From the IMG/VR virus record IMGVR_UViG_3300045988_029552, positions 1 to 31,437 of that record: DNA of 31,437 nt; one strand, given 5' to 3'. Of this stretch, positions 4,231 through 31,437 are shown one piece after another. The DNA comes from a virus. The notes under the pieces were generated by a model, which did not search any database, was not told the DNA's origin, and saw only the letters and a program-made list of their open reading frames with translations. Position numbers and translations under genes: made by a program. The stretch's first letter is position 1, and each line of letters opens with the position of its first letter.

Positions 4231-5120
4231 TAGCCGTTCTCTACTGCTATCCAGTCGAAGTCGCAACCCCGACCATTCTTAACGAACATCTGAAACTGTG
4301 TCGCAGTGACATTATATGGCTTAGGGGTGTCCCACGTGAAGTCACCCGAAGCAGACCTAACCGAGGCCACAACACGAGGAGCGCTCGAGAAACGCCCTGG
4401 GGGGAACTGGATAGTAAACACCGCAGGCCCCGCAGAGCTAGCCGTCACCGTACCCGACGCAATAGCAGGGATACGGGGCAGCTGAACCTGAGGAATTACC
4501 GTATCCTCACGCCATGCTGACCCAGTCCACAGCATAACCTTGTTGGTGTCCAGCTCATAGATGCGCTGGCCCTTCTGAAGGAACCACGTTGTGGGCCTGC
4601 TATTAGAATAACACGGGATAGTGCCGCCCACAGCGCACGTGTACTGCCTAGAATCATAAATCGTGGGGCTACCCGTAGTCGATACGATAACACGGGCTAT
4701 AAGCAGAGCACCAGACGGCGTAGCCGGCGTAGGGAAGCTAGCCGACGCCGTACCCTTAATCATTTCGAATGAGGCCTGGTACTTGTTAGAGCCATCCACA
4801 GTACCGTCATACACTTTCAGCACCAGAATATCAGTGCGCGGGTATGACGTGTCCTTAGCGTACAGAGGCAAGCTAACGTCGTCGACATTAGCCACACGGT
4901 AGCTGCCGTTATTCGATGCCACAGGCGTAACAATAGCCGTACCAGAACTGACCCTGATCTGGCTACCATTCAAGCTAGGAGTCATACCTGACGTCACTCC
5001 TGGCCGACACGCCAGAGGGTGGGTATCGTGGACCATAGTAGAGCCCACATCGAGCCGCCTGAATTCAGCGGCATTCACTGAAACGTTACCACCAATAGGT
5101 AGCACATTATCGAGAGCCAT
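4230..5120 (-). CDS. minor tail protein (possible receptor-binding component)
   Basis: 296 aa, Ser/Thr/Gly/Val-rich beta-type sequence. TAATG coupling to the upstream gene. Position after the Dit-like gene. Confidence 0.6.
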   Translation of the reverse strand: MALDNVLPIGGNVSVNAAEFRRLDVGSTMVHDTHPLACRPGVTSGMTPSLNGSQIRVSSGTAIVTPVASNNGSYRVANVDDVSLPLYAKDTSYPRTDILVLKVYDGTVDGSNKYQASFEMIKGTASASFPTPATPSGALLIARVIVSTTGSPTIYDSRQYTCAVGGTIPCYSNSRPTTWFLQKGQRIYELDTNKVMLWTGSAWREDTVIPQVQLPRIPAIASGTVTASSAGPAVFTIQFPPGRFSSAPRVVASVRSASGDFTWDTPKPYNVTATQFQMFVKNGRGCDFDWIAVENG

Positions 5121-5962
5121 TATATAGTCACCTGTCTCACAATTACATCAAGATAAGCTGTGGGGGAATACACATCAGACCTGAAACCAATAGTCAATTC
5201 GCCTCTACCTAACTCAGGCCATTCCCTGATAGTAGGGGCAGCAGAAGATTGCCCCTGCCTAAGTGACGTGCGGTTAGTCAAATCAATATCTAGCCACTCG
5301 TCTTGCTGTAGGGTGAAGTCCCACCTCAAGCGTCCAGCCCCACCTGGACCAGAAAAGATAACAGACGGTATCTGCACATACCCGTAAAGCTTAAGACTAA
5401 CCCTGTTATGGTAGCCAGAGCTTACCGTGACGGACCCGTAGTTACCCGACTCCAAGAAAGAGATAGGGTACTTGATCGGGAACTTAATACCTCCCGTAAG
5501 GTTGGGTAGATACAGCCTATGCTTAGCTGTATACTGATCATCGATCTGGCCATCCGGAGTCTGACCTCCACGCCACCACACAGGGTCAGGAGCTATCAGA
5601 GTAGCTCCCCATTCAAACGCTGACCCATTAGCCAGGAACGTTATATCCAGAGCGCTATCCCGGGCCACATACATAGTCTTCGGTCCACGAGGCGTATTAA
5701 CAGTCAGTGGCGAGGTATTAATATCCGCGATACTCAGGAGAGTCTCCATGGCCTCCTCAGCATCCTCCAGAGACTGCCCTACGTAATACCCTTTAATAGC
5801 ACCAGACTTAGCTCCATGAAAGGCCTTAGTACGCCATATACCGTCATAGCCCACACGCTGGCCACTCTGCGCAACGGCAGGGGCTGAGCCGAAGAGTTTG
5901 CACTCACTCACAACCCAGTCCCCACCGTTGATCACGTGGCCATTCCACGTGACTTCTTTCAC
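5120..5962 (-). CDS. distal tail protein (Dit)-like minor tail protein
   Basis: 280 aa, immediately downstream of the tape measure with GTGA start/stop overlap. Assigned by synteny. Confidence 0.55.
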   Translation of the reverse strand: MKEVTWNGHVINGGDWVVSECKLFGSAPAVAQSGQRVGYDGIWRTKAFHGAKSGAIKGYYVGQSLEDAEEAMETLLSIADINTSPLTVNTPRGPKTMYVARDSALDITFLANGSAFEWGATLIAPDPVWWRGGQTPDGQIDDQYTAKHRLYLPNLTGGIKFPIKYPISFLESGNYGSVTVSSGYHNRVSLKLYGYVQIPSVIFSGPGGAGRLRWDFTLQQDEWLDIDLTNRTSLRQGQSSAAPTIREWPELGRGELTIGFRSDVYSPTAYLDVIVRQVTI

Positions 5963-11182: not shown

Positions 11183-12367
11183 TCAGACCTTGCGAGAAAC
11201 CTTGCAGAAAGCTTTCGGCTGAGTCACGGTCAGCAGCTCACGGATCTCCATACGGACCACAGTCACGTCAGACACGAACAGGTCAGCGTGAGAATTCGTC
11301 GCCTCAATCCTGACACCGCCCTTCCGGACCAACATGCCGCCAGCCTTGAACGCACCAACCAGAGCAGTGCCCGCAGCGATACGCGGGGAGATCACAGTGT
11401 TCAGGCCCCACAGCGAAGGCACAATCTGAACCTGGCCGTTGCCGTACGCACCAGTGAACGCACCGCCACCGAAGTACTGGCCGTTGCTGTCCTTAGCCAG
11501 ACGCTGAGCAGCGTAGTCCTGGGGGTTGATCACGATAGCGTCAGCCGGGAAGCCGCTCTCCTGGAGGACGTCCATAGCTCCGCCCAGAATAGCCTCACCG
11601 AACTCAGCAGTAGTAGCAGTCTTCTCAACCTCACGGGCCAGGATACCGCTCTTGGTCAGGACACCCTGGAGCTGGCCGTTCTGACCAGAGCCGTTCAGGA
11701 TCTGGTTCTCTTCAGCAACAGCAATACGGTACACGCCACGCTGATTAACATGCGAGGCCAGCCAGGCGTGATCCTCAAGCATTTCGTCAGAGAAGGCCAG
11801 AATGCCGGTGATCTTCTTCAGCGCCTCGATGTTCGTCTTCGGGTTAACAAAGTGAATGTTGTTCTTCTTGGCACCCTGAGCAGTCGGGCCGGCATCGCCC
11901 TCAACAGCGCTGTCCTCAAGCCAGGCCACAGCAGCACTGTCGGTGTTACCCTGAGCGAAGAGGTCCCCAACATACAGCGGAGGCTGAGCGTAATGAGCAC
12001 CCTTGTCATAGTCGGCGTCAAAACCGATCAGGCTGTCCCAAGTCAGGTGCCAATCCTCAGCACCTTTGAACTCGGGACCGTTCACCGAGAAATTGTCACG
12101 GCCCTTAACCCGAGCAAGCTCAGGACCGAAGTGCTTAACAAAGTGCGCACCCAGAGACTTAGCCTCACCAGCAACCGCCACAGAATTTCCTTTCAGTTCA
12201 TTAACCGCGCCTTCATTCGACTCGAAGGACTTGATCTTAGCAATAGTTGACTTATACTCTTCGACCAGAGATTCGGTATCTTTACCCACAACCCCTGACT
12301 CTTCAACTGCCTTAAGGCGACCCTTGATCTCAGCAGCCTTAACTTTCAGTGCCTCAATCCCGCTCAC
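11183..12367 (-). CDS. major capsid protein, HK97-like with N-terminal delta-type coiled coil
   Basis: 394 aa. GTG start overlapping the protease stop (GTGA). N-terminal coiled coil (IEALKVKAAEIKGRLKAVEE). Follows the S78 protease as in HK97-type modules. Confidence 0.85.
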   Translation of the reverse strand: MSGIEALKVKAAEIKGRLKAVEESGVVGKDTESLVEEYKSTIAKIKSFESNEGAVNELKGNSVAVAGEAKSLGAHFVKHFGPELARVKGRDNFSVNGPEFKGAEDWHLTWDSLIGFDADYDKGAHYAQPPLYVGDLFAQGNTDSAAVAWLEDSAVEGDAGPTAQGAKKNNIHFVNPKTNIEALKKITGILAFSDEMLEDHAWLASHVNQRGVYRIAVAEENQILNGSGQNGQLQGVLTKSGILAREVEKTATTAEFGEAILGGAMDVLQESGFPADAIVINPQDYAAQRLAKDSNGQYFGGGAFTGAYGNGQVQIVPSLWGLNTVISPRIAAGTALVGAFKAGGMLVRKGGVRIEATNSHADLFVSDVTVVRMEIRELLTVTQPKAFCKVSRKV

Positions 12368-16647: not shown

Positions 16648-17052
16648 TCACATGAGGAATGGATTATCAGTGTCTTTGTTCTTACCCGAATTCCTTGCTT
16701 TAGGCGTCCACCCGGCCTCTTTCATATAAGCAAGAAAGGCCTGAGATTGTGACCGGAAAATAACCTCCGCAGGATGCTTTTGCATTCGGTGATTGGGGTT
16801 ATCAGTAACCAATACCGAATCAGCTGAAATAACCTCATTCGAGGCTTTTCGTGCAATAGCATAATGCCTACACATAGCCTCGATAAACAGGCCATCCATT
16901 TCATCAAGGTTGTCAAGAACTTCCTTAGGCATCATACCAACAAGCTCGGACCACACTCCTCGAAGAACCTCATTATTGGCGATTCCAGGAGGAATCTCAC
17001 TAAAACGCTCTTCTTCGGTCAAAATAACACCTTCTTTCCAAACAGTGAACAC
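16648..17052 (-). CDS. terS: terminase small subunit (P27-like)
   Basis: 134 aa. Pattern W..L...D...L...C..Y and C-terminal EAGWTPKAR typical of the P27-family small terminase. GTG start. Directly upstream of terL. Confidence 0.7.
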   Translation of the reverse strand: MFTVWKEGVILTEEERFSEIPPGIANNEVLRGVWSELVGMMPKEVLDNLDEMDGLFIEAMCRHYAIARKASNEVISADSVLVTDNPNHRMQKHPAEVIFRSQSQAFLAYMKEAGWTPKARNSGKNKDTDNPFLM

Positions 17053-17083
17053 TGTTCACTTTAACGATCAACTAACCTGTATT

Positions 17084-17467
17084 TCACGGAGAGTTACCCC
17101 GGCGCAGCTTTTTAATTGAATTTCGTGATTTTCTTGACGCTTCCCTTGTTTTCTTGGAATGACATTCATGGCATAATGATTGCAATTGATTTTCGTCTAG
17201 AATTGTTAATTCATTCTCAATTGCTTTAATTCCATCAATGTGATCGACTTCTGTTGCAATCATTCCGCACAAATTACAGTAAGGATTCTCTCTAATGAAT
17301 CTGTTACGAAGTTTCTTCCATTTACGGTAAATCTTTCCGTCGACATTCTTCCAAGCAGTTGGTCGCAATTCCCAACCGGATTTTGTCGGTGTGTGGGCCA
17401 GGCACGACGCTGTGCCTGGCAAACCTAACTCTCCGCACCAGCATCGCTCAGGGGCTGAATACGGCAT
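17084..17467 (-). CDS. HNH endonuclease (terminase-associated)
   Basis: CNLCG...EVDHIDG...NQLQSLCHECHSKKT is an HNH/zinc-finger motif. Sits just upstream of terS as in HK97-type cos phages. Confidence 0.9.
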   Translation of the reverse strand: MPYSAPERCWCGELGLPGTASCLAHTPTKSGWELRPTAWKNVDGKIYRKWKKLRNRFIRENPYCNLCGMIATEVDHIDGIKAIENELTILDENQLQSLCHECHSKKTREASRKSRNSIKKLRRGNSP

Positions 17468-17493
17468 GGGATAAGTCCTATCGAGGTATACCG

Positions 17494-17526
17494 GGGGTAC
17501 CTTCCGGGGTACCTTAGGGGGTACCT
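17494..17526. repeat. three tandem 12-bp-phased GGGGTACCT repeats (17494, 17506, 17518); a fourth copy lies at 17603..17611
   Basis: ccGGGGGTACCTTCCGGGGTACCTTAGGGGGTACCTatg read directly. Each unit contains the GGTACC palindrome. Confidence 0.85.
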
Positions 17527-17533
17527 ATGCGAG

Positions 17534-17570
17534 ATACCCTAGGGGGCTATTCCTGCACCCCCTAGGGTAT
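17534..17570. repeat. perfect 13-bp inverted repeat ATACCCTAGGGGG / CCCCCTAGGGTAT with an 11-nt spacer
   Basis: Arms at 17534-17546 and 17558-17570. Each arm contains the CCCTAGGG palindrome. Confidence 0.85.
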
Positions 17571-17630
17571 TTCAAAATTAGCACCCCCGGGGTTCCAATC
17601 CAGGGGTACCTACAAACCAGTACCCGTAAT

Positions 17631-17656
17631 GGTTAACATTACCCCCATAGGTTAAC
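17631..17656. repeat. pair of GGTTAAC sites 19 bp apart (17631-17637, 17650-17656)
   Basis: aatGGTTAACattacccccataGGTTAACctc. The same hexamer forms the dyads upstream of the early promoters. Confidence 0.7.
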
Positions 17657-17694
17657 CTCATCCCCCTAGCCTTGTCAAGCCGACACGCCGGTAG

Positions 17695-17982
17695 TCACCA
17701 TGCCACCGCCACATCGACCATCAGGTACTTGCCCTCGACCTTAGACGTCAGCGAGACCACACGCTCGCCGTAGCCCACCAGGGCCTGCCAACACGCCTTT
17801 GCCTCGTATGACTCCACCGGGTAATCCTCAAGCTTCGCCCTGAACTTCATGAGTGTGGTCTTGTTCCGGTCATCGTGCTGCATACCCAAGCTCTCCAGCC
17901 GGTACCCCACTGGCAGAGCAGGCACCTCATGCCCACCCGGCACCAGCACACATCGCTTAACAATCTCTCGCGGAATCTCCAT
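17695..17982 (-). CDS. hypothetical protein, apparently leaderless
   Basis: 95 aa. The ATG lies 6 nt downstream of a TGcTAAGCT extended -10. No recognisable motif. Confidence 0.55.
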   Translation of the reverse strand: MEIPREIVKRCVLVPGGHEVPALPVGYRLESLGMQHDDRNKTTLMKFRAKLEDYPVESYEAKACWQALVGYGERVVSLTSKVEGKYLMVDVAVAW

Positions 17983-17988
17983 GCCCCG

Positions 17989-18018
17989 AGCTTAGCACAT
18001 CTCCCTGCCACCCTGCAA
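17989..18018 (-). promoter_or_regulatory. leftward promoter, TTGCAG-N18-TGcTAAGCT, with the ATG at the predicted +1
   Basis: Minus strand reads ggtgTTGCAGggtggcagggagatGTGCTAAGCTcggggcATG, near-identical to the rightward promoter at 18715. Confidence 0.65.
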
Positions 18019-18046
18019 CACCTCCTGAGAGCTCCACCGTCGCGCC

Positions 18047-18111
18047 TTAGACGGCCTCAAATCGTCTGGGGGTACTCCAGTGCCACCCTGACCCTGTTAG
18101 GCCCTCAGAAT
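18047..18111 (+). repeat. 65-bp conserved element, copy 1 (most diverged)
   Basis: TTAGACGGCCTCAAA ...46 nt... CTGTTAGGCCCTCAGAAT, alignable with 19165..19230 and 19545..19614. Confidence 0.6.
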
Positions 18112-18260
18112 CCAACCTCTGGCTTCTCAGCGGCATCCTAGCCTTTCTCACCCCTAGCGCTAGACCACACACCCCCTGGCGAGCCGCGAGACGGCGAGCC
18201 CAGCTCCCTCAGCTCAGTCTCCCCACCCCCACCGTCCCCGTCGTGCCCTGGCACGGGGCT

Positions 18261-18304
18261 GGGCCCCGGGGCCCGGCGTTTACGCCTGGGGCCCCGGGAG
18301 GCCC
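18261..18304. repeat. GC hairpin A: 18 bp in three helices (4+10+4) with two 2-nt bulges, apex GGCG-TTTA-CGCC
   Basis: GGGCCCCGGGGCCCGGCG tta CGCC tg GGGCCCCGGG ag GCCC, paired by hand. Confidence 0.75.
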
Positions 18305-18433
18305 AGAGCCCCGTGCGGGGAGGGCCGCGAGACGGCCCGACCGAGGAAGCCTCAAGCTGTACCACACACCAGCAAAGAGAGAAAGGTCTCCCCCATACCC
18401 CCTCTAAAGAGAGAAATATATATAAACTTACCT

Positions 18434-18487
18434 CCCTGAGAGGGTCTCTCTCTCAGGCGTAAACGCCAGAGAGAGACCCTCTCAGGG
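18434..18487. repeat. hairpin B: 20-bp perfect stem, 2-nt bulge, then 4-bp apex GGCG-TAAA-CGCC
   Basis: CCCTGAGAGGGTCTCTCTCT (18434-18453) pairs with AGAGAGAGACCCTCTCAGGG (18468-18487). The apex 18456-18467 is the reverse complement of the hairpin A apex. Confidence 0.85.
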
Positions 18488-18690
18488 GTAGGGGTGGATA
18501 GGGGGGTTTGGGGGGAAGGCGGGGAAGGGCCGCCAGCCTCGTACGTGCGTGCGTGCACACGCGTAGCGCTACCCGCCCGCGCCACATACCCGCCACATAC
18601 GCCAGCGCGCCACCTGCGCGCGCCACGCCTGAGCGCTACGCGGAGGGCAGGAGGGGGTCTGGGGGAGGAGGGGTGCCGGGAAGTGGCTGA

Positions 18691-18706
18691 GTTAACCTCG
18701 GTTAAC
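18691..18706. promoter_or_regulatory. GTTAAC-N4-GTTAAC dyad (10-bp phase) upstream of promoter P1
   Basis: gaGTTAACctcgGTTAACtc, ending 8 nt upstream of the -35. Confidence 0.55.
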
Positions 18707-18714
18707 TCTTGGGG

Positions 18715-18744
18715 TTGCAGGGGTGTGTGGTCCTGTGCTAAGGT
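18715..18744 (+). promoter_or_regulatory. promoter P1, TTGCAG-N18-TGcTAAGGT, leaderless (ATG 6 nt after the -10)
   Basis: ggggTTGCAGgggtgtgtggtcctGTGCTAAGGTggatccATG. Confidence 0.65.
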
Positions 18745-18750
18745 GGATCC

Positions 18751-19131
18751 ATGATCACGAGACGAGAGATCTTTGCAACCATCAACGCGACCACATGTGA
18801 GACCGGCTACGAGCGCGTCCTGGCAGGTAACTTCCTGGTCGCCATCCAGACAGACGACGTCGAGAGGCTCGATGAGGCGCTGCGCGCCCTGGCATATGTG
18901 GCCCTGACCTCCTGGACATTCACGCTAGCTGTCCACGCCGTCTGCGGCACGATGATCAAGCGCCACACCGTAGGGTCCAAGGCAGCCTGGTCCCGCGTCC
19001 CGGGGTGGGCACGCAGCCACAAGTCCCACCCGCTGGCCGCGCTAGTCCTCGCGTGCTACCTGGTGCGCGAGGGCAGGTTTGATCACGAGGGGGTGGAGGA
19101 CCTACTGGTGCGCTCTGGTTGGTGGTCCTGA
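18751..19131 (+). CDS. hypothetical protein, paralog A of 19716..20135
   Basis: 126 aa. Shares SWTFTLAVHAVCGTMIKRHTVGSKAAWSRV / RSGWW with SPWTFAIGVSAEAGQLCKKLTIGSKASWGRV / ESGW in the 139-aa ORF. Confidence 0.6.
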   Translation: MITRREIFATINATTCETGYERVLAGNFLVAIQTDDVERLDEALRALAYVALTSWTFTLAVHAVCGTMIKRHTVGSKAAWSRVPGWARSHKSHPLAALVLACYLVREGRFDHEGVEDLLVRSGWWS

Positions 19132-19164
19132 CCTAGATTGATCCTGATCCTGCTGGGAGTGCCC

Positions 19165-19230
19165 CTAAACGGCCTCAAACAGGCCAGGGGGTAGCCTAGG
19201 TAGGGTCAGGTGCTGTTAGGCCGTAAATCG
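19165..19230 (+). repeat. 65-bp conserved element, copy 2, with long-range stem (possible U-tract-less terminator)
   Basis: ACGGCCT..AACAG (19169-19182) pairs with CTGTTAGGCCGT (19213-19224), 12 bp. Located just after gene A. Confidence 0.55.
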
Positions 19231-19245
19231 AGGATGCCTACACGC

Positions 19246-19274
19246 TTTACGAGGTGTCTGGGTAGTGCTAGGGT
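19246..19274 (+). promoter_or_regulatory. promoter P4, TTTACG-N17-TGcTAGGGT, leaderless (ATG 7 nt after the -10)
   Basis: cTTTACGaggtgtctgggtaGTGCTAGGGTagttaccATG. Confidence 0.5.
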
Positions 19275-19281
19275 AGTTACC

Positions 19282-19542
19282 ATGACTTGGACATGCAGAG
19301 ACTGCAAGAAGACCATCGTCGGCTACAAGACCGAGCACTGCCCTGAGTGCCACGAGACGTTCACCCGCACCAAGGCAGGCGACAAGCACCGTACGGGCCG
19401 GCACGGGGTGACTGAGGGCCCAGACCGACGTAGGTGTCTGACCCCAGCTGAGTTGGCCGCTAAGGGTATGACCCAGAACTCGAAGGGTTACTGGACCACC
19501 GGGGAGACATTCGAGAATGCCTCTGAAAGCTTCCACCGGTAG
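19282..19542 (+). CDS. zinc-ribbon protein of the FDxHR type
   Basis: ORF 19210..19542 trimmed to MTWTCRDCKK. The C-x2-C ... H-C-x2-C-H-x-T-F ... D-K-H-R pattern matches the actinobacterial/actinophage FDxHR zinc-binding family as I recall it. Confidence 0.65.
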   Translation: MTWTCRDCKKTIVGYKTEHCPECHETFTRTKAGDKHRTGRHGVTEGPDRRRCLTPAELAAKGMTQNSKGYWTTGETFENASESFHR

Positions 19543-19715: not shown

Positions 19716-20135
19716 ATGAACGCTGAGTGGCGAAATATCCACACCACAATTGTTATGACCACTCAGTACGAGTCTGACCAGGCCACCCTCACTAGTGTGC
19801 TGGTGGAGGCATTAAGGTCAGAGGGCCCTGATGAGCTAAGGAACGCTCTGGAGTGGTGGGTAGCTATAGCTCACTCACCGTGGACATTCGCTATTGGGGT
19901 GTCTGCTGAGGCAGGTCAGCTCTGTAAGAAGCTCACTATTGGCAGCAAGGCCTCATGGGGACGTGTATTGTCCCGTGTGCGCAGCTACGGTGAGGGCCTG
20001 GGGGGTATCGCTAAGGCCATGCGGTGTGAGCCCCCACTGTTCGCTATTGCGTACCTCACTGCACGCATGCGGGATGACCTCATCGACCCGTCAGAGGTAG
20101 AACTCATTCTGCACGAGTCAGGGTGGGTTAACTAA
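19716..20135 (+). CDS. hypothetical protein, paralog B of 18751..19131
   Basis: 139 aa. Conserved WTF...GSKA(A/S)W(S/G)RV...SGW blocks shared with paralog A. GAAAGG SD. Confidence 0.65.
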   Translation: MNAEWRNIHTTIVMTTQYESDQATLTSVLVEALRSEGPDELRNALEWWVAIAHSPWTFAIGVSAEAGQLCKKLTIGSKASWGRVLSRVRSYGEGLGGIAKAMRCEPPLFAIAYLTARMRDDLIDPSEVELILHESGWVN

Positions 20136-20431: not shown

Positions 20432-20724
20432 TGTATGAGTTCGGTGACCTGCCTCGGATGATCCAGAACATTAAGCCCGAGCGGAGCTGTATGTCGTCTG
20501 TGGTCTACCGTAACCCTGATGGGCTATGGTGGGTGGCCGGTAAGTATTACCCGGAGCCTGGTGGGGCGTATATACACCCTGTCATGAGGCTGCTGAATGA
20601 GATTGGGGGGTCACGACCGGGTATTGCATATGTAATTGATCGTATTTGCCCCACCTGTGAGGCTATTCTGAAGACTTTTCCACAGTTCGACAAGGTTATT
20701 GTTAGGAGCTATAGTGATCAATGA
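20431..20724 (+). CDS. hypothetical protein (97 aa) with an H-P-V ... C-P-T-C pattern
   Basis: TGATG coupling to the upstream gene. No confident family assignment. Confidence 0.55.
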   Translation: MYEFGDLPRMIQNIKPERSCMSSVVYRNPDGLWWVAGKYYPEPGGAYIHPVMRLLNEIGGSRPGIAYVIDRICPTCEAILKTFPQFDKVIVRSYSDQ

Positions 20725-21469
20725 GATTGAGCTAGCCTATGAGATTGCCCAGCAATCCTCCCACCCTGAATGCAAGGTAGGTTGCTATTTCGTAAACACC
20801 TCTGGGGATTACCAGATATCCACACATAACGTTGAGCTTGGCCCTAAATGCCACGACGTTGCACCTGACGGGCAGTGCCTTGAGTACATCCACGCGGAGG
20901 TGTGGGCCTCTCAACAGCTTATGGAGCTGCCCTATCGTCTTAGGGAGGGACATATAGCTATGACCTACGAACCTTGCGCACCTTGTGCTAGAGCACTGCT
21001 TCTGGCGGGGTTCAGGGGGTCTCTGGAGTATGACAGGCCGTGGCTCGATCCAGCTCTGAAAACATCAGACTGGCGAGAGCATAAGCAGGGTATAACCGTA
21101 CTGCGTAATTCCTGTGTTGAGGTCATTAGATCTCGTCCCGAGTACGGCGCAAGGCACTATAACGACCTTAATTTCGGTGACTGGTATCCACAATGTATGG
21201 AAGTGCTTAAATGGGGCGAAATCAGGTATAGGGACCTTAATAAAAAGGCCTGTATGGATATTCTTAATACCTTCAACAGGTATTTGGGTATGGGGTTCAG
21301 TGTTAGTCAAGAGGTTATTTATGGGGTTACTAATTACACCCTGGCTAAGAATTTCAATAAGGCAGTTAAAGACTTTACGCACTGGGCTAATTACGGTAGC
21401 TCATGGGTTAAGGAACCGGGTTACATAATTGTCAAATGTGTATCGGAGGTGCATCGTCGTGCTGTGTGA
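20714..21469 (+). CDS. dCMP/cytidine deaminase-fold domain fused to a ~140-aa C-terminal domain of unknown function
   Basis: YIHAEVWA ... YEPCAPCARALLLAGF is the H-A-E / P-C-x2-C zinc motif. Start placed at the GTG at 20714, 5 nt after AGGAG (the ORF track starts at a TTG at 20699). Confidence 0.75.
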   Translation: MINEIELAYEIAQQSSHPECKVGCYFVNTSGDYQISTHNVELGPKCHDVAPDGQCLEYIHAEVWASQQLMELPYRLREGHIAMTYEPCAPCARALLLAGFRGSLEYDRPWLDPALKTSDWREHKQGITVLRNSCVEVIRSRPEYGARHYNDLNFGDWYPQCMEVLKWGEIRYRDLNKKACMDILNTFNRYLGMGFSVSQEVIYGVTNYTLAKNFNKAVKDFTHWANYGSSWVKEPGYIIVKCVSEVHRRAV

Positions 21470-22265
21470 GTATGATCGAGCTATACACAACCTGTCTAGA
21501 CAGGCTGCTGAGTTAGTCACAGAAGGACAGGAGCACCCGTACTGGTGCTACGGGTCATGGAGTGTGGTATACACTCATGCCCCATTGTCCCAGACCCGTA
21601 GGGTGTCTGTGGACATGGCTCAGAGAGAGCTGTACTGGATGCTGAGCGGGTCAGGGGCCACACAGCACGACAGGTGCGCTAGAATCACCCCCGACGTGGC
21701 GCGCATGTGGTCTCCGTGGGCTGAGGATGAGCTAGGGCCTATGTACGGTGTCCAGTGGCGCTATGGTGGTCCTGACGGGTTGTATGATGCTATCCAGGAC
21801 GTTGTAGACAGACTTGTAGACAACCCTACAACCAAGCGCGCTGTGTGGACTGCCTGGCAGGGGTATGAGGTCGGGGCTATGCGTATCCCACCATGCCCTG
21901 TTACTTGGGCATGGAATGTTATAGGCGGCAAGGTCAATCTCGATATCTTCGCCAGGTCCACAGACGTCGTGTGCGGTATGCCCTACGATACTCTTGAAGG
22001 GTGGATGCTTATCCATCTTATGACTAACACACTGAAATTTCACGGGCATGATGTTAGGCCAGGTAAGCTTCGATTTACCACTGCAAATGCTCACGTGTAT
22101 TGCCAGAACCTGGACGTTTGGCATAGGATGTTGATGCCTGCTAGGGTAGAGAAGGAGGTTGAGTTCATACCGTCTAAGCAAGGTGTGCTAGAGTTCAAAG
22201 GTAAAGGTTTTAAGGCGGTCAATTATAAGGCGCCTATTTATTCAGCGAAAGTGGTGGTTGTTTAA
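21456..22265 (+). CDS. thymidylate-synthase-fold pyrimidine C5 (hydroxy)methylase; Asp at the ThyA Asn177 position suggests a dCMP substrate
   Basis: ELYWML, GPMYGVQWR, NPTTKRAVWTAW, IPPC, ARSTDVVCGMPYD and ANAHVY align with E. coli ThyA blocks with identical C-(20)-R-(11)-N/D spacing. Start placed at the GTG at 21456, 6 nt after GGAGG (the ORF track starts at a TTG at 21429). Confidence 0.75.
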   Translation, partial: VVLCEYDRAIHNLSRQAAELVTEGQEHPYWCYGSWSVVYTHAPLSQTRRVSVDMAQRELYWMLSGSGATQHDRCARITPDVARMWSPWAEDELGPMYGVQWRYGGPDGLYDAIQDVVDRLVDNPTTKRAVWTAWQGYEVGAMRIPPCPVTWAWNVIGGKVNLDIFARSTDVVCGMPYDTLEGWMLIHLMTNTLKFHGHDVRPGKLRFTTANAHVYCQNLDVWHRMLMPARVEKEVEFIPSKQGVLEFKGKGFKAVNYKAPIYSAKVVVV

Positions 22266-22525
22266 TGTTGAAGTTGTTTTTCCTCGGTGCTTCGTGGTGC
22301 TCACAGTGCCCACAATCTAAGGCTAATTTTGAAAGGGCTATGCAAAAGTTCCCTTATCTTGGTTGGGACTATGTTGATGTTGAGGTCAATCCTGACCTAG
22401 GGCGTAAATTCAATGTCATGTCTGTCCCAACTGTGATAGCCTTGCGCGAGGGTGTGGAGGTTGCTAGGATGGGTACGGGGACCACACTCCAGTACAAGAA
22501 GATGATCGAAGGAGCACTAAACTAA
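22265..22525 (+). CDS. thioredoxin/glutaredoxin-like redox protein
   Basis: 86 aa. FFLGASWCSQCPQ is a W-C-x-x-C active site. VPTV cis-Pro-type motif. TAATG coupling to the ThyA-fold gene. Confidence 0.8.
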   Translation: MLKLFFLGASWCSQCPQSKANFERAMQKFPYLGWDYVDVEVNPDLGRKFNVMSVPTVIALREGVEVARMGTGTTLQYKKMIEGALN

Positions 22526-27977: not shown

Positions 27978-28416
27978 GATCTCGATCGACTTCTCCGACG
28001 TCAAGGCGCCGTCCTTCAGCACCGTGCACCAGGAACCAGGTGTGTACAACGCTGAGATCGCTGGTGTGGAGATGACCAAGACCAAGTCAGATAACACCGA
28101 CATGCTGGTGTTTGCTATCGTGGCAGGTCCTGGACGCTACCCCTACTACTGCAAGATCGTCCCGAATCAGCTGTGGAAGCTCCGTGAACTGATCGAAGCT
28201 TCCGGTACTAAGGTTCCTAACAAGGTTGTCCAGATTGATCCTGCCAAGTACGTTGGGGCTAAGATCAACGTAGAGCTTGAGGACGACACCTACAATGGCA
28301 AGCTGCGCAGCCGTGTCGCACGTGTGGCCCAGTTCTCTGAGGTCGAGTCCAAGGTTAAGGAGGAAGTCCAGCAGGACGTTGAGGATGACTTCGGCGAGTT
28401 CGACGACATCCTCTGA
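27970..28416 (+). CDS. DUF669-like single-stranded DNA-binding protein
   Basis: ORF 27868..28416 trimmed to MAKISIDFSDV (ATGGCTAA overlap). EPGVYNAEIAGVEMTKTKSDNTDMLVFAI pattern. Acidic SSB-type tail DDFGEFDDIL. Confidence 0.65.
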   Translation: MAKISIDFSDVKAPSFSTVHQEPGVYNAEIAGVEMTKTKSDNTDMLVFAIVAGPGRYPYYCKIVPNQLWKLRELIEASGTKVPNKVVQIDPAKYVGAKINVELEDDTYNGKLRSRVARVAQFSEVESKVKEEVQQDVEDDFGEFDDIL

Positions 28417-28425
28417 CATAGTCTG

Positions 28426-28448
28426 GGGCAGGGACAGGAGCCCTGCCC
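28426..28448 (+). other. 8-bp GC stem-loop downstream of the SSB gene (GGGCAGGG acaggag CCCTGCCC)
   Basis: Read directly. No U-tract, so the role (attenuator or mRNA stabiliser) is uncertain. Confidence 0.3.
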
Positions 28449-28453
28449 TGGGC

Positions 28454-28759
28454 ATGCTAGAGAGTACGTTCTCACGCCAAGTGCAAAAGTATGTAGAGTC
28501 ACGTGGTTGGTGGGTGGTCAAATACCACGCCAGCCAGTACACTAAGAAGGGCATCCCAGATCTCATAGCTTGTTTCAGAGGCAGGTTCGTAGGTCTGGAG
28601 CTTAAAACAGGCTCATCTTTGAGCCAGTGGCAAATTCGAGTTGGGGCTGATATCATGTCAGCCGGAGGGTATTGGGCATGCGTAACCCCCGATACCTACA
28701 AGGAAGAGATAGCTAGGGTTGAAGATGAGGTTCTTCGAGACAATCTGGGAGGGTTGTGA
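28454..28759 (+). CDS. VRR-NUC-type PD-(D/E)XK nuclease
   Basis: ORF 28277..28759 trimmed to MLESTFSRQVQKYVESRGWWV. GIPDLIA...VGLELK is a D...ExK core in a ~100-aa protein. Confidence 0.7.
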   Translation: MLESTFSRQVQKYVESRGWWVVKYHASQYTKKGIPDLIACFRGRFVGLELKTGSSLSQWQIRVGADIMSAGGYWACVTPDTYKEEIARVEDEVLRDNLGGL

Positions 28760-30326
28760 TGGGTATTTTTTCATCTGTGGGATCACGTGGCCGGGTCAGG
28801 CTTTCAACCCGGGCAAAGCCTTTCGGGTTGTGGACCAACTTGACGAAGCGAAGCACTACGTGCGGGATCTCGTTAAAGCTGGGCAGGATGTATATTTCAC
28901 TCCCGGTCTTTTCTCTCGGCCGGAAAGGAAGGCGGAATACCTCAAAGCGGGCCCGCTAATCTGGTCTGACGTAGATGACGGCCACACGGAAGGTACTAAC
29001 CCACTCGCTGTGTGGTCTAGCAGCCCGGGCCACACTCAGGCTATCTGGCGACTGACTGAAACTGTACCTCAGCCTGACCAGGACAGCCTGTCTAGGGCCG
29101 TCAGCCACGTACTAGGCTGCGACCCTGGGGGCTGGGACGCTACTCAGCTACTCAGGGTACCTGGCACTCCCTCGCATAAGAGGGGCTGCGCGGTAGGCAG
29201 GCCCGTATACGGGCCCACACAGACCCCTGGTGAGCTGGCCTCAGCAGTGTACCGTACCCTGGACGGTAGCTCTTCGTCTATAGCTGGGCAGCTTCGTGCT
29301 AGTAAAGCCCTTGGTGACAGGTCGAGCCAGTTGTACGCGGCTATAGCTAGCATGCTGGAGTGCGGGGTGGAGCCGGAATTTATACCCGGCCTGATTCGCC
29401 ACACGCCTCTTAATAAATGGGGTTCAGTAGACAAGCTGAAGTCTGAGGTTCAGAGGGTAGCTAGTAAACTAGACCTTGCAGGGTCTAAAACTATTGAGGC
29501 TATCGAGATAGTTGAAGATTCACCTAAAGAGCCTCTGCTCCAGATCAGGCAACTATCTGAGCTAGTCAACATGCCCCCTCCGCGGTGGCGTATAGACGGC
29601 CTGGTAGAGGAGGGTGGCTGTGGCTTCATAGCTGCACCGCCTAAGCACTACAAGTCGTGGATAATGCTCGATATGGCTATCAGCCTGTCTCTGGGGCAGC
29701 CCGTGCTAGGGTATGCTAGATCACACCAGGCACCCTGCCTCATCATCGAAGCGGAGGACAGCCTATCGCGCGTGTGGTCTCGCGTACAGACTATCCTCCA
29801 GTGTCGCTTCCCACACCATGACCCTCGAGGCTACATCACCTACAAGTCAGGCGTGCTGGAGCTACATCCCCCTGACGGGGATATCCCCCTCTATATAGCA
29901 GGTAGGCCCACACAGGGGCTGTCACCTGAGCTAGCCGAGGAGATAGGCGAGACCATAGACTCGATGGGTATAGGCCTGGTGTGCTACGACACACTGTCTA
30001 TGCTCACCACAGAGAGCATCAATGACAGCCAGGCCATGTACGGGCAGATCTTGCAGCCCATCAAGGCTGTAGCTCAGGCCACAGGGTGCGCTCAGCTCAT
30101 AGTGCACCACACGCGCAAGGCCAGCAAGGACATGCCCTCCACTGGAGGCGCAGCTCTGGCTGGGTCAGTGGCCCTGCATGCGTGGTCAGACAATAGTCTG
30201 TACATATCTCGACAGGCAGAGTCGTTGAGTATTCAAGTAGAAACTAAGTCAGGGTCACAGGACCTAGTCGTCACCGGGCTAGACACTCCGGGAGAGTGGC
30301 AGCCTGAAGTTGTGCAATCACTTTAG
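28719..30326 (+). CDS. bifunctional primase-polymerase / RepA-DnaB-like (AAA_25) helicase
   Basis: 535 aa. The N-terminal region has DVYFTPGLF, WSDVDDG (DxD) and LLRVPGTPSHK. The C-terminal region has Walker A-like AAPPKHYKS, LIIEAED, VHHTRK. Confidence 0.75.
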   Translation: MKMRFFETIWEGCDGYFFICGITWPGQAFNPGKAFRVVDQLDEAKHYVRDLVKAGQDVYFTPGLFSRPERKAEYLKAGPLIWSDVDDGHTEGTNPLAVWSSSPGHTQAIWRLTETVPQPDQDSLSRAVSHVLGCDPGGWDATQLLRVPGTPSHKRGCAVGRPVYGPTQTPGELASAVYRTLDGSSSSIAGQLRASKALGDRSSQLYAAIASMLECGVEPEFIPGLIRHTPLNKWGSVDKLKSEVQRVASKLDLAGSKTIEAIEIVEDSPKEPLLQIRQLSELVNMPPPRWRIDGLVEEGGCGFIAAPPKHYKSWIMLDMAISLSLGQPVLGYARSHQAPCLIIEAEDSLSRVWSRVQTILQCRFPHHDPRGYITYKSGVLELHPPDGDIPLYIAGRPTQGLSPELAEEIGETIDSMGIGLVCYDTLSMLTTESINDSQAMYGQILQPIKAVAQATGCAQLIVHHTRKASKDMPSTGGAALAGSVALHAWSDNSLYISRQAESLSIQVETKSGSQDLVVTGLDTPGEWQPEVVQSL

Positions 30327-31238: not shown

Positions 31239-31402
31239 TCGACCCGGAAGCAATGGCAGCACAGCTGCGCTACTACTACCCTCACACTAGTCAGGAGCAA
31301 CGACTGGCGTGTGGTCAAGAGATTGCTCAGGTATCAGGCCTGTACTGCTGGCCACCTGAGAAGATCATCAAGCGCATCATCAAGAAACATCTAGGAAGCT
31401 GA
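31232..31402 (+). CDS. small hypothetical protein (56 aa, MVIDPEAMAAQLRYYYPHTSQEQ...)
   Basis: Found by hand. ATGGTGA overlap with the upstream stop. Runs into the terminal repeat. Confidence 0.4.
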   Translation: MVIDPEAMAAQLRYYYPHTSQEQRLACGQEIAQVSGLYCWPPEKIIKRIIKKHLGS

Positions 31403-31437
31403 CATGGACATGTGTGTTGCTATGGTGCTGCTGGCCC
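31383..31437. repeat. terminal direct repeat, copy 2 (exact copy of 1..55)
   Basis: Same 55-mer as 1..55; ORFs read through the junction without disruption. Confidence 0.95.

Follow-up and report, generated by a model that had tools for sequence, protein, structure and literature searches.

Conserved non-coding control region with twin hairpins between the diverging arms of an uncultured actinophage-like genome: a candidate origin of replication

The gap between ORF95 and ORF126

The record IMGVR_UViG_3300045988_029552 of an uncultured phage was analysed over its full length of 31,437 nt, referred to below as the window. Two gene arms diverge within it, and the 768-bp gap between them (17983-18750) is a conserved non-coding control region of an actinophage-like genome; its core at ~18221-18530 is considered here as a candidate origin of replication. 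Nucleotides 1-55 of the window are identical to nucleotides 31383-31437 (55 nt), thus the window is a circular assembly of ~31,382 bp (~31.4 kb) and not a genome with known termini. The minus-strand arm begins with open reading frame (ORF) 95, followed by an HNH gene, TerS, TerL and the structural genes. The plus-strand arm starts with ORF126 and genes for a Zn-binding protein, a dCMP-deaminase-like protein, a ThyA-like protein, a thioredoxin, an SNF2 helicase and PolA, and continues with a PD-(D/E)XK exonuclease, a Sak4-like ATPase, a DUF669 protein, an Hjc-like resolvase and a 535-aa primase-helicase. According to the ORF list, no gene points into the gap. The nearest cultured relatives are actinobacteriophages, with a TerL at most 48 % and a primase-helicase ~30 % identical, and one early gene resembles a gene of a C. 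acnes phage.

A first-pass annotation had described 18138-18690 as an ORF-free, extremely GC-rich block with a strand-composition switch, an AT island and iteron-like repeats, and had suggested a replication origin and/or a cohesive-end (cos) region. Its G+C counts were reproduced exactly (49/60 at 18241-18300, 37/60 at 11341-11400 and 23/60 at 17101-17160); the G+C content of the interval is 68.4 %, compared to 53.3 % in the whole window. The strand-composition switch is real, with a GC skew of -0.19 in 18138-18410 and +0.15 in 18431-18690, and the AT island GAGAAATATATATAAACTTA at 18411 contains the AT-richest 20-mers of the intergenic region. The short repeats were also found where they had been placed: GCCGCGAGACGGC at 18183 and 18324, ACCACACACC at 18164 and 18361, AAAGAGAGAAA at 18374 and 18406, the tandem repeat CGCCACATAC at 18580 and 18591, GCGCGCCAC at 18605 and 18618, and the palindrome GTAGCGCTAC at 18563. 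Repeated 10-mers were far more frequent than in 300 dinucleotide-preserving shuffles, none of which reached the observed values: 9 direct repeats were present versus 0.6 in the shuffles, and 45 inverted repeats versus 2.6. Inverted, not direct, repeats dominate the region, a trait that had been under-described. Of the classic iteron layout claimed earlier, the existence of short repeats stands, but some of them are pieces of larger conserved elements and belong to the invariant centre, the GGTGTGTGGTC motif and the flanks of hairpin A described below.

Both edges of the gap carry the same element in an alignment of 13 homologous regions (alignment A1): TTGCAG, 18 nt ending in TGTGC, TAnnnT, 6 nt and ATG. 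Consensus and invariant columns define it as a putative outward promoter on either side. The left promoter, for ORF95 (17983-18018, minus strand), has its -35 hexamer TTGCAG at 18013-18018, an 18-nt spacer ending in TGTGC, the -10 hexamer TAAGCT at 17989-17994 and 6 nt before the ATG at 17982; its invariant columns are the three consensus bases of TAnnnT, the TG that precedes it and the first three bases (TTG) of the -35 hexamer. The right promoter, for ORF126 (18715-18750, plus strand), consists of TTGCAG at 18715-18720, a spacer with GGTGTGTGGTC at 18722-18732 and TGTGC, the -10 hexamer TAAGGT at 18739-18744 and 6 nt before the ATG at 18751. The leftward transcript of ORF95 and the rightward transcript of ORF126 are predicted to be leaderless, in which case the ~730 bp between the promoters would not be a 5' untranslated region of either gene.

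Upstream of the left promoter lies a non-coding block of ~140 nt (18020-18160, minus strand), highly conserved in A1, with the 19-nt motif CTCAAATCGTCTGGGGGTA at 18056-18074. No convincing RNA structure was found for this block; its consensus fold is weak (-15 kcal/mol) and shows little covariation. The mini-ORF MPLR in it (~18147-18058) was rejected as a gene: it is not conserved in the sister-clade contig L101, where it stops early though the nucleotide similarity runs on. The motif GGTGTGTGGTC follows at 18163-18173 on the minus strand (inverted repeats I3 and I10), has its mirror copy on the plus strand in the right promoter spacer (18722-18732) and a 10-nt partial copy at 18361-18370. Both full copies are invariant in 13 relatives.

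The core begins with a G-quadruplex motif on the minus strand (18221-18248, C-runs on the plus strand), left of hairpin A (18251-18316). The centre at 18373-18430 consists of the 53-nt sequence CAAAGAGAGAAAGGTCTCCCCCATACCCCCTCTAAAGAGAGAAATATATATAA (18373-18425) and the AT island (18411-18430) and is near-invariant across 13 relatives, one subgroup differing slightly. To its right are hairpin B (18434-18487) and, directly 3' of it, a plus-strand G-quadruplex motif (18485-18529). The interval 18540-18640 comprises a 26-nt alternating purine-pyrimidine run (18540-18565), the longest of the window, and then a tract of short repeats with CGCCAC at 18580, 18591, 18608 and 18621 and the palindrome GTAGCGCTAC at 18563. 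Three sequence classes with variable copy number were found for this tract among relatives; it is hypervariable and slippage-prone. A second plus-strand G-quadruplex motif lies at 18645-18680. A regular-expression scan found three canonical G-quadruplex motifs in the whole window, all of them within 18221-18680 and strand-symmetric about the centre. A small hairpin at 18689-18708, GAGTTAAC-CTCG-GTTAACTC with TTAAC, is present in 9 of 13 relatives; pairs of GTTAAC, as in this hairpin, occur also at 17632 and 17651.

The term ORF-free was borne out by the relatives: in most of 12 aligned relatives the four mechanical ORFs of the interval (60-86 aa) are interrupted by stops or by indels that shift the frame. 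A protein conserved across 18138-18690, which the first-pass annotation had named as speaking against its proposal, was not found among these 12. Sigma-70-type promoter pairs were not detected inside the region, and terminator-like sites, that is a GC-rich hairpin with a T-run, were absent from 17400-19300, so that a reading as intrinsic terminator fails. A comparison of the whole window with Rfam 15 gave no match at gathering score, and no tRNA or tmRNA was found. A known structured RNA was rejected, the only hits being sub-threshold matches of microRNA precursors on hairpin B.

Twin hairpins, their relatives and the primase-helicase

No other hairpin of the window is as long as A (28 pairs) or B (24 pairs), and a TAAA/TTTA loop on a stem of at least 9 pairs occurs in these two alone. 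Both were detected by DNA folding and as inverted repeats (I2 and I5 for hairpin B). On the plus strand the apex of hairpin A reads GGCG-TTTA-CGCC, so that its loop is TAAA on the minus strand, and a 2-nt bulge adjoins it; the apex of hairpin B, CA-GGCG-TAAA-CGCC on the plus strand, is its reverse complement. A 14-nt apex CAGGCGTAAACGCC, including the 2-nt bulge, is thus common to A and B in inverted orientation (I5), and the same hairpin tip is therefore presented on complementary strands. Small GCCG-CGAGA-CGGC stem-loops flank hairpin A at 18183-18195 and 18324-18336. The DNA fold of hairpin A has z scores of -4.0 (plus strand) and -3.3 (minus strand), that of hairpin B -7.9 and -8.8.

The region was recovered in ~25 IMG/VR contigs of ~31 kb at 70-91 % nucleotide identity; the homologous regions comprise 12 complete and more than 10 partial ones. 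Centre and apexes are conserved among contigs whose flanking ORF95 and ORF126 proteins are just 55-88 % identical. Relatives have four stem types for hairpin A and at least three for hairpin B, and each of these variants can be folded into a long hairpin that keeps its apex. Compensatory double changes show that the stems covary; they affect 11 of the 29 pairs of hairpin A and 5 of the 21 of hairpin B, for instance CT/AG to AC/GT between L002 and L003 or G·C to T·A between the window and L028. Stem variants of hairpin B differ by compensatory changes and paired deletions. In a control with chimeric arms, arms of the same variant folded better than mixed arms (-41 versus -33 and -27 versus -19 kcal/mol), a weak test for arms so rich in GC. 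Stem types and repeat classes reassort between relatives, and the module of hairpin A is duplicated in L014 and L025.

A sister clade (L101, L106, L140 and L141), with proteins ~40-49 % identical, has an equivalent gap of 717 bp that cannot be aligned with the gap of the window except for a homologue of the left block, which sits on the opposite side of the region and faces the other arm. The design of the gap in L101 and L140 is a GC hairpin with TTTA loop, C-runs, alternating CG, an AT-rich palindrome, a TAAA-loop hairpin, alternating CG and G-runs. The TTTA and TAAA tetraloop hairpins are on opposite strands around the AT-rich palindrome and, judged by eye, the G-quadruplex arrangement of L101 is strand-symmetric as well, with C-runs to the left and G-runs to the right.

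More distant contigs separate the apex from the packaging genes. The divergent gap of L109 and L139 carries AGTCGC-TAC-GGCGTAAACGCC-TAC-GCGACT with the identical 12-nt apex, a 12-mer absent elsewhere in ~1.5 Mb of fetched loci. The TerL of these contigs is of the Terminase_6 type, 74 % identical to TerL of L103 and unrelated to TerL of the window; an HNH match was not obtained in L109 or L139. L103, which has the same replication module, holds five ~25-bp iterons and an AT-rich palindrome at the equivalent position. The occurrence of the apex beside an unrelated terminase, together with the iterons of L103 at the same position, shows that the element travels with the early/replication module and not with packaging, and this association can be regarded as established. 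The iteron of L103 (6920-7060) reads CAGG(G)AAGTGTAA and occurs five times, every ~25 bp. In L109, three to four CCGGAGGG repeats occur at 4300-4480 together with hairpins with TAAA and TTAC loops. Next to these origin-like features, the first gene of the early arm is homologous in L103, L108 and L109 (~35 % identity) and may encode the initiator of this group.

The trans-acting candidate of the window is the 535-aa protein encoded at 28719-30326 on the plus strand, according to Pfam, PDB and Foldseek a fusion of a RepB'-like AEP primase (catalytic and helical domain) with a RepA-like AAA_25 helicase. Pfam gave AAA_25 at 1.5e-27 and RepB_primase at 4.8e-4, the latter below the family cut-off; homologues with 42-46 % identity carry PF16793, to which the protein of the window itself matches weakly. 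Its sole sequence matches in the PDB are RepA of plasmid RSF1010 (best, 1G8Y) and RepB'. The AlphaFold2 model of residues 1-275 has a pLDDT of 88, and its top Foldseek matches in the PDB are 3H20 (1.3e-8) and 3H25_A (8e-7, 8.3e-7). The primase fold is thereby established in the model, and by sequence and predicted fold the closest solved relatives of the N-terminal domain are the RSF1010 primase RepB' (3H20, 3H25); the C-terminal domain is closest to the RSF1010 helicase RepA. The start of the gene is overlapped by an ORF with an Hjc-type Holliday-junction resolvase domain (28277-28759), which overlaps the DUF669 gene, too. A cruciform-cutting enzyme is hence encoded in a genome carrying two long palindromes.

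Proposed replication origin and rival explanations

With the anatomy of the region established, an origin of replication in the core (~18221-18530) is the best-supported reading, since the region is conserved and non-coding in ~25 relatives, a phage whose terminase is unrelated carries the apex along with the replication/early module, iterons and an AT-rich palindrome occupy this position in L103, which shares the replication module, and the layout matches the Pahexavirus region proposed as an origin (Marinelli et al. 2012). On this comparative evidence we put the chance of an origin function at about even. Of the double suggestion made earlier, origin and/or cos, the origin half agrees best with the comparative, though circumstantial, evidence; the cos half was not supported.

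We infer that replication would start here with the hairpins as priming sites, one particular strand of each being read. IncQ-like priming hairpins are proposed because a RepB'-like primase is fused to a RepA-like helicase. In this model the near-invariant, AT-rich centre with its AT island would melt as candidate unwinding or loading site, and helicases would travel outward from it. Hairpins A and B would fold on the displaced, exposed single strands and recruit the RepB'-like primase, acting as single-strand initiation (ssi) signals in the manner of ssiA and ssiB for RepB' in RSF1010, and each primer would be extended across the centre. If instead the TTTA strand were read, synthesis would proceed outward. 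The G-quadruplex motifs lie on the strands that outward forks would displace and could help to hold the region open. By analogy, an uncultured, human-associated phage family could start its replication like an IncQ plasmid, a fused primase-helicase recognising two TAAA-tetraloop hairpins extruded on complementary strands; we advance this specific mechanism tentatively and regard it as rather less than probable. Both strands would then be primed site-specifically, possibly in a leading-strand-only mode, with the strand-symmetric G-quadruplexes keeping the origin open. If this is true, it would be the first phage example of structure-specific origin priming of the ssi type. Hairpins that serve as priming signals would extend ssi-type site-specific priming from IncQ plasmids to phages, and would give access to an easy test in vitro and to a minimal origin on which vectors for oral Actinobacteria could be built. 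Oligonucleotides and a single purified protein would suffice for a direct test of the model; the architecture of the region is compact, conserved and testable, and a candidate enzyme, the RepB'-like primase-helicase, can be named for it.

Several observations weigh against the proposed origin and its priming hairpins. The skew switch, counted earlier as a sign of an origin, flips at ~18.3 kb together with the gene orientation and a second time at the convergent end; since it coincides with the switch in gene orientation, it is uninformative and provides no independent evidence. A RepC-like initiator was not detected by Pfam in any scanned ORF. No protein co-varies cleanly with the class of the hypervariable short repeats; ORF182, as a candidate partner of the 'iteron' class, merely separates one class from the other two. 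The apex, nearly palindromic itself (GGCGT-N2-ACGCC), could serve as an operator that a dimeric regulator binds in double-stranded form. An assignment of the strand read from G·T wobbles failed, because the individual stem variants are fully Watson-Crick. The hairpin pair is lacking in the cultured phages CaptainRex and FF47, whose primase-helicases are ~30 % identical; the twin hairpins are thus no universal partner of this primase-helicase family, and the link of hairpin and primase is limited to closer clades. Compared by eye, the phage hairpins have no sequence similarity to ssiA or ssiB, the AT-rich element of the phage is between the hairpins and not beside them, and the phage is without iterons of 20-22 bp, of which the IncQ1 plasmid has four 22-bp repeats.

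A transcriptional control hub devoid of origin function, in which the GGCGT-N2-ACGCC apexes and GGTGTGTGGTC would be operators of an early/late switch for the two outward promoters, appears unlikely. Two conserved promoters bound the region, GGTGTGTGGTC is located inside the right promoter spacer and the near-palindromic apex is operator-like. As a variant, divergent non-coding transcripts could start from the AT island, on the minus strand of which a -10-like hexamer of the TAnnnT type, TATATT, is invariant; on either side, outward transcription would have the G-rich strand as its non-template strand, and the G-rich RNAs with UAAA-loop hairpins could function in antitermination, in processing or as R-loop primers. 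However, neither a sigma-70-type promoter pair inside the region nor an Rfam family was detected, apart from microRNA-hairpin noise below threshold, and with leaderless edge promoters the 730 bp between them would not serve as a 5' untranslated region. An operator leaves unexplained the stems of 20-45 bp that are kept by compensatory change. Transcriptional control is, moreover, compatible with an origin, and the region may combine origin and regulatory roles.

Less probable still is a recombination or cruciform hotspot. The palindromes would then be substrates for the Hjc-like resolvase and a Cas4-like/Sak4-like recombination module, and would start recombination-dependent replication or drive module exchange instead of forming an origin recognised by a primase. 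The phage does encode an Hjc-like resolvase, a PD-(D/E)XK exonuclease and a Sak4-like ATPase, and the reassortment of stem types and repeat classes as well as the duplicated hairpin A module in L014 and L025 speak for such a site. But a hotspot does not account for the invariant apex, the loops on complementary strands and the invariant centre, and the mosaicism may follow from an origin without being its purpose.

That the region holds a cos or packaging site, hence the physical ends of the virion DNA, is very improbable. It is located ~1.1 kb upstream of HNH-TerS-TerL, and at least 15 related contigs, plus contigs of the sister clade, end inside it. These ends are, however, spread over ~500 bp (18221-18709) with no discrete, reproducible terminus. 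Contigs with both ends here miss 130-420 bp, mainly of the G-quadruplex and CG-rich part, others overlap by 47 or ~115 nt, and assembly runs across the region without a break in the window and in several relatives. Scattered ends and missing sequence therefore indicate an assembly-refractory stretch and not a discrete terminus, and the contig ends were rejected as termini. Furthermore, the flagged interval is at least 1.1 kb away from TerS with ORF95 and HNH in between, which disagrees with a cos adjoining terS and downstream of HNH (HK97 or Pahexavirus type); in the syntenic Pahexavirus phage MrAK the genome end is 62 nt after HNH and adjoins TerS, and in L109 the identical apex stands beside an unrelated terminase without an HNH match. 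Scattered contig ends, Pahexavirus synteny and an apex with a different packaging module thus leave the earlier claim of physical ends unsupported.

Assemblies from many samples break within 18221-18709 (L012, L015, L016, L024, L026, L029, L032, L111, L121-L128, L140, L106 and L107); the contigs of several relatives break at 18490-18547, and the segment ~18500-18650 is often missing. The 'linear' IMG/VR contigs of ~31 kb that end here are incomplete, and their ends should not be read as true termini. By synteny with MrAK, cohesive ends would be expected at ~17024-17083. This spacer between HNH and TerS contains a 17-bp palindrome, AGTGAACACTGTTCACT, at 17044-17060. A gene-free gap of 227 bp between ORF95 and HNH (17468-17694), upstream of HNH, has four copies of GGGGTACC (17494, 17506, 17518 and 17603), a 37-nt palindrome (17534-17570) and GTTAAC sites at 17632 and 17651; it may serve as late promoter, activator site or terminase-binding site. 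Upstream of an uncalled HNH in the sister contig L101, a comparable stretch rich in GGTACCCC lies at 5540-5660. The spacer palindrome and this gap are better candidates for a cos or terminase site than the flagged interval. Shambre1, the closest cultured relative by TerL, gave no help in placing cos.

The remaining alternatives can be dismissed briefly: a protein-coding reading was rejected as the ORFs of the interval are all broken in relatives, and a protelomerase with hairpin telomeres was rejected by reasoning, the apexes being imperfect palindromes and several contigs assembling across the region, with no protelomerase domain among the ORFs scanned with Pfam.

Three loci outside the gap may be mentioned. 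Where both arms converge, a 16-bp perfect hairpin, AATTAACCCCCTGCC-TGTTT-AGGCAGGGGGTTAATT (121-156), is probably a bidirectional terminator. The cluster at 20699-22525 codes for the dCMP-deaminase-like (256 aa) and ThyA-like (278 aa) proteins and the thioredoxin, to which sister clades add a dUTPase/DCD; it may function in remodelling of the nucleotide pool or in the formation of a modified base. ORF139 (19716-20135) has two very different alleles among otherwise close relatives, ~85-90 % identical in some and ~30-36 % in others, a sequence pattern that shows local mosaicism in the early arm.

Comparison with known and putative replication origins

Iteron-type origins, such as lambda ori or the origin-like locus of L103, resemble the region in that it adjoins the start of the early/replication arm and combines an AT-rich element with short direct repeats. 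In contrast to them, the repeats of the window have 10-13 nt, are irregularly spaced (11, 17 and 13 nt) and hypervariable, and have no identified initiator.

Phage origins have been mapped experimentally in very few phages and in almost no actinobacteriophages. For the much-studied C. acnes phages of the genus Pahexavirus, Marinelli et al. 2012 (PMC3448167) placed a putative origin in the non-coding region, arguing from base composition, low-complexity runs that are conserved, and a skew switch; this origin is itself only inferred. Genes of Pahexavirus are annotated as DNA primases and DnaB helicase (PMC3448167). Common to both groups are genomes of ~30 kb with two divergent arms, one homologous early gene, and a non-coding region that separates the early arm from a small gene, after which come HNH and TerS/TerL. 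The layout in MrAK is gp44, a gap of 2,018 bp, gp45, the HNH gene gp46, the genome end 62 nt later and then TerS; the matching order in the window is ORF126, the 768-bp gap, ORF95, HNH and TerS. Unusual base composition, conserved low-complexity runs and the skew switch are shared, too, and the 19-nt motif CTCAAATCNTCTGGGGGTA of the left block is present in MrAK. Among 2.9 million viral contigs this motif was confined to the family of the window and to contigs of Pahexavirus size. The Pahexavirus region differs in its length of ~2 kb and in being AT-rich (47 % GC overall), and has three direct copies of a short GAGCCC-loop-GGGCTC hairpin, whereas the window has two long inverted hairpins. BLAST of the two regions gave no similarity beyond the 19-nt motif.

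RSF1010 is a plasmid replicon and the replicon here is a phage, in which no RepC was found and primase and helicase are fused in one protein. Besides the differences weighed above, the phage hairpins have 24-28 pairs with a TAAA tetraloop, compared to a 21-nt hairpin in the plasmid. The likeness concerns enzymes and geometry. The phage encodes its own RepB'-like primase and RepA-like helicase. In RSF1010, ssiA and ssiB are 40-nt inverted repeats on complementary strands that form hairpins, and RepB' initiates only there (PMC8567376). In the oriV of an IncQ1 plasmid as we read it, the left ssi belongs to the minus and the right ssi to the plus strand, ~75 nt apart, with AT-rich and G/C-rich elements and short direct repeats nearby, as in the phage. 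Likewise, the phage region presents two hairpin elements with a common sequence on complementary strands, the left on minus and the right on plus; the geometry of hairpins A and B would match that of the IncQ1 ssi if the TAAA strand is the one read.

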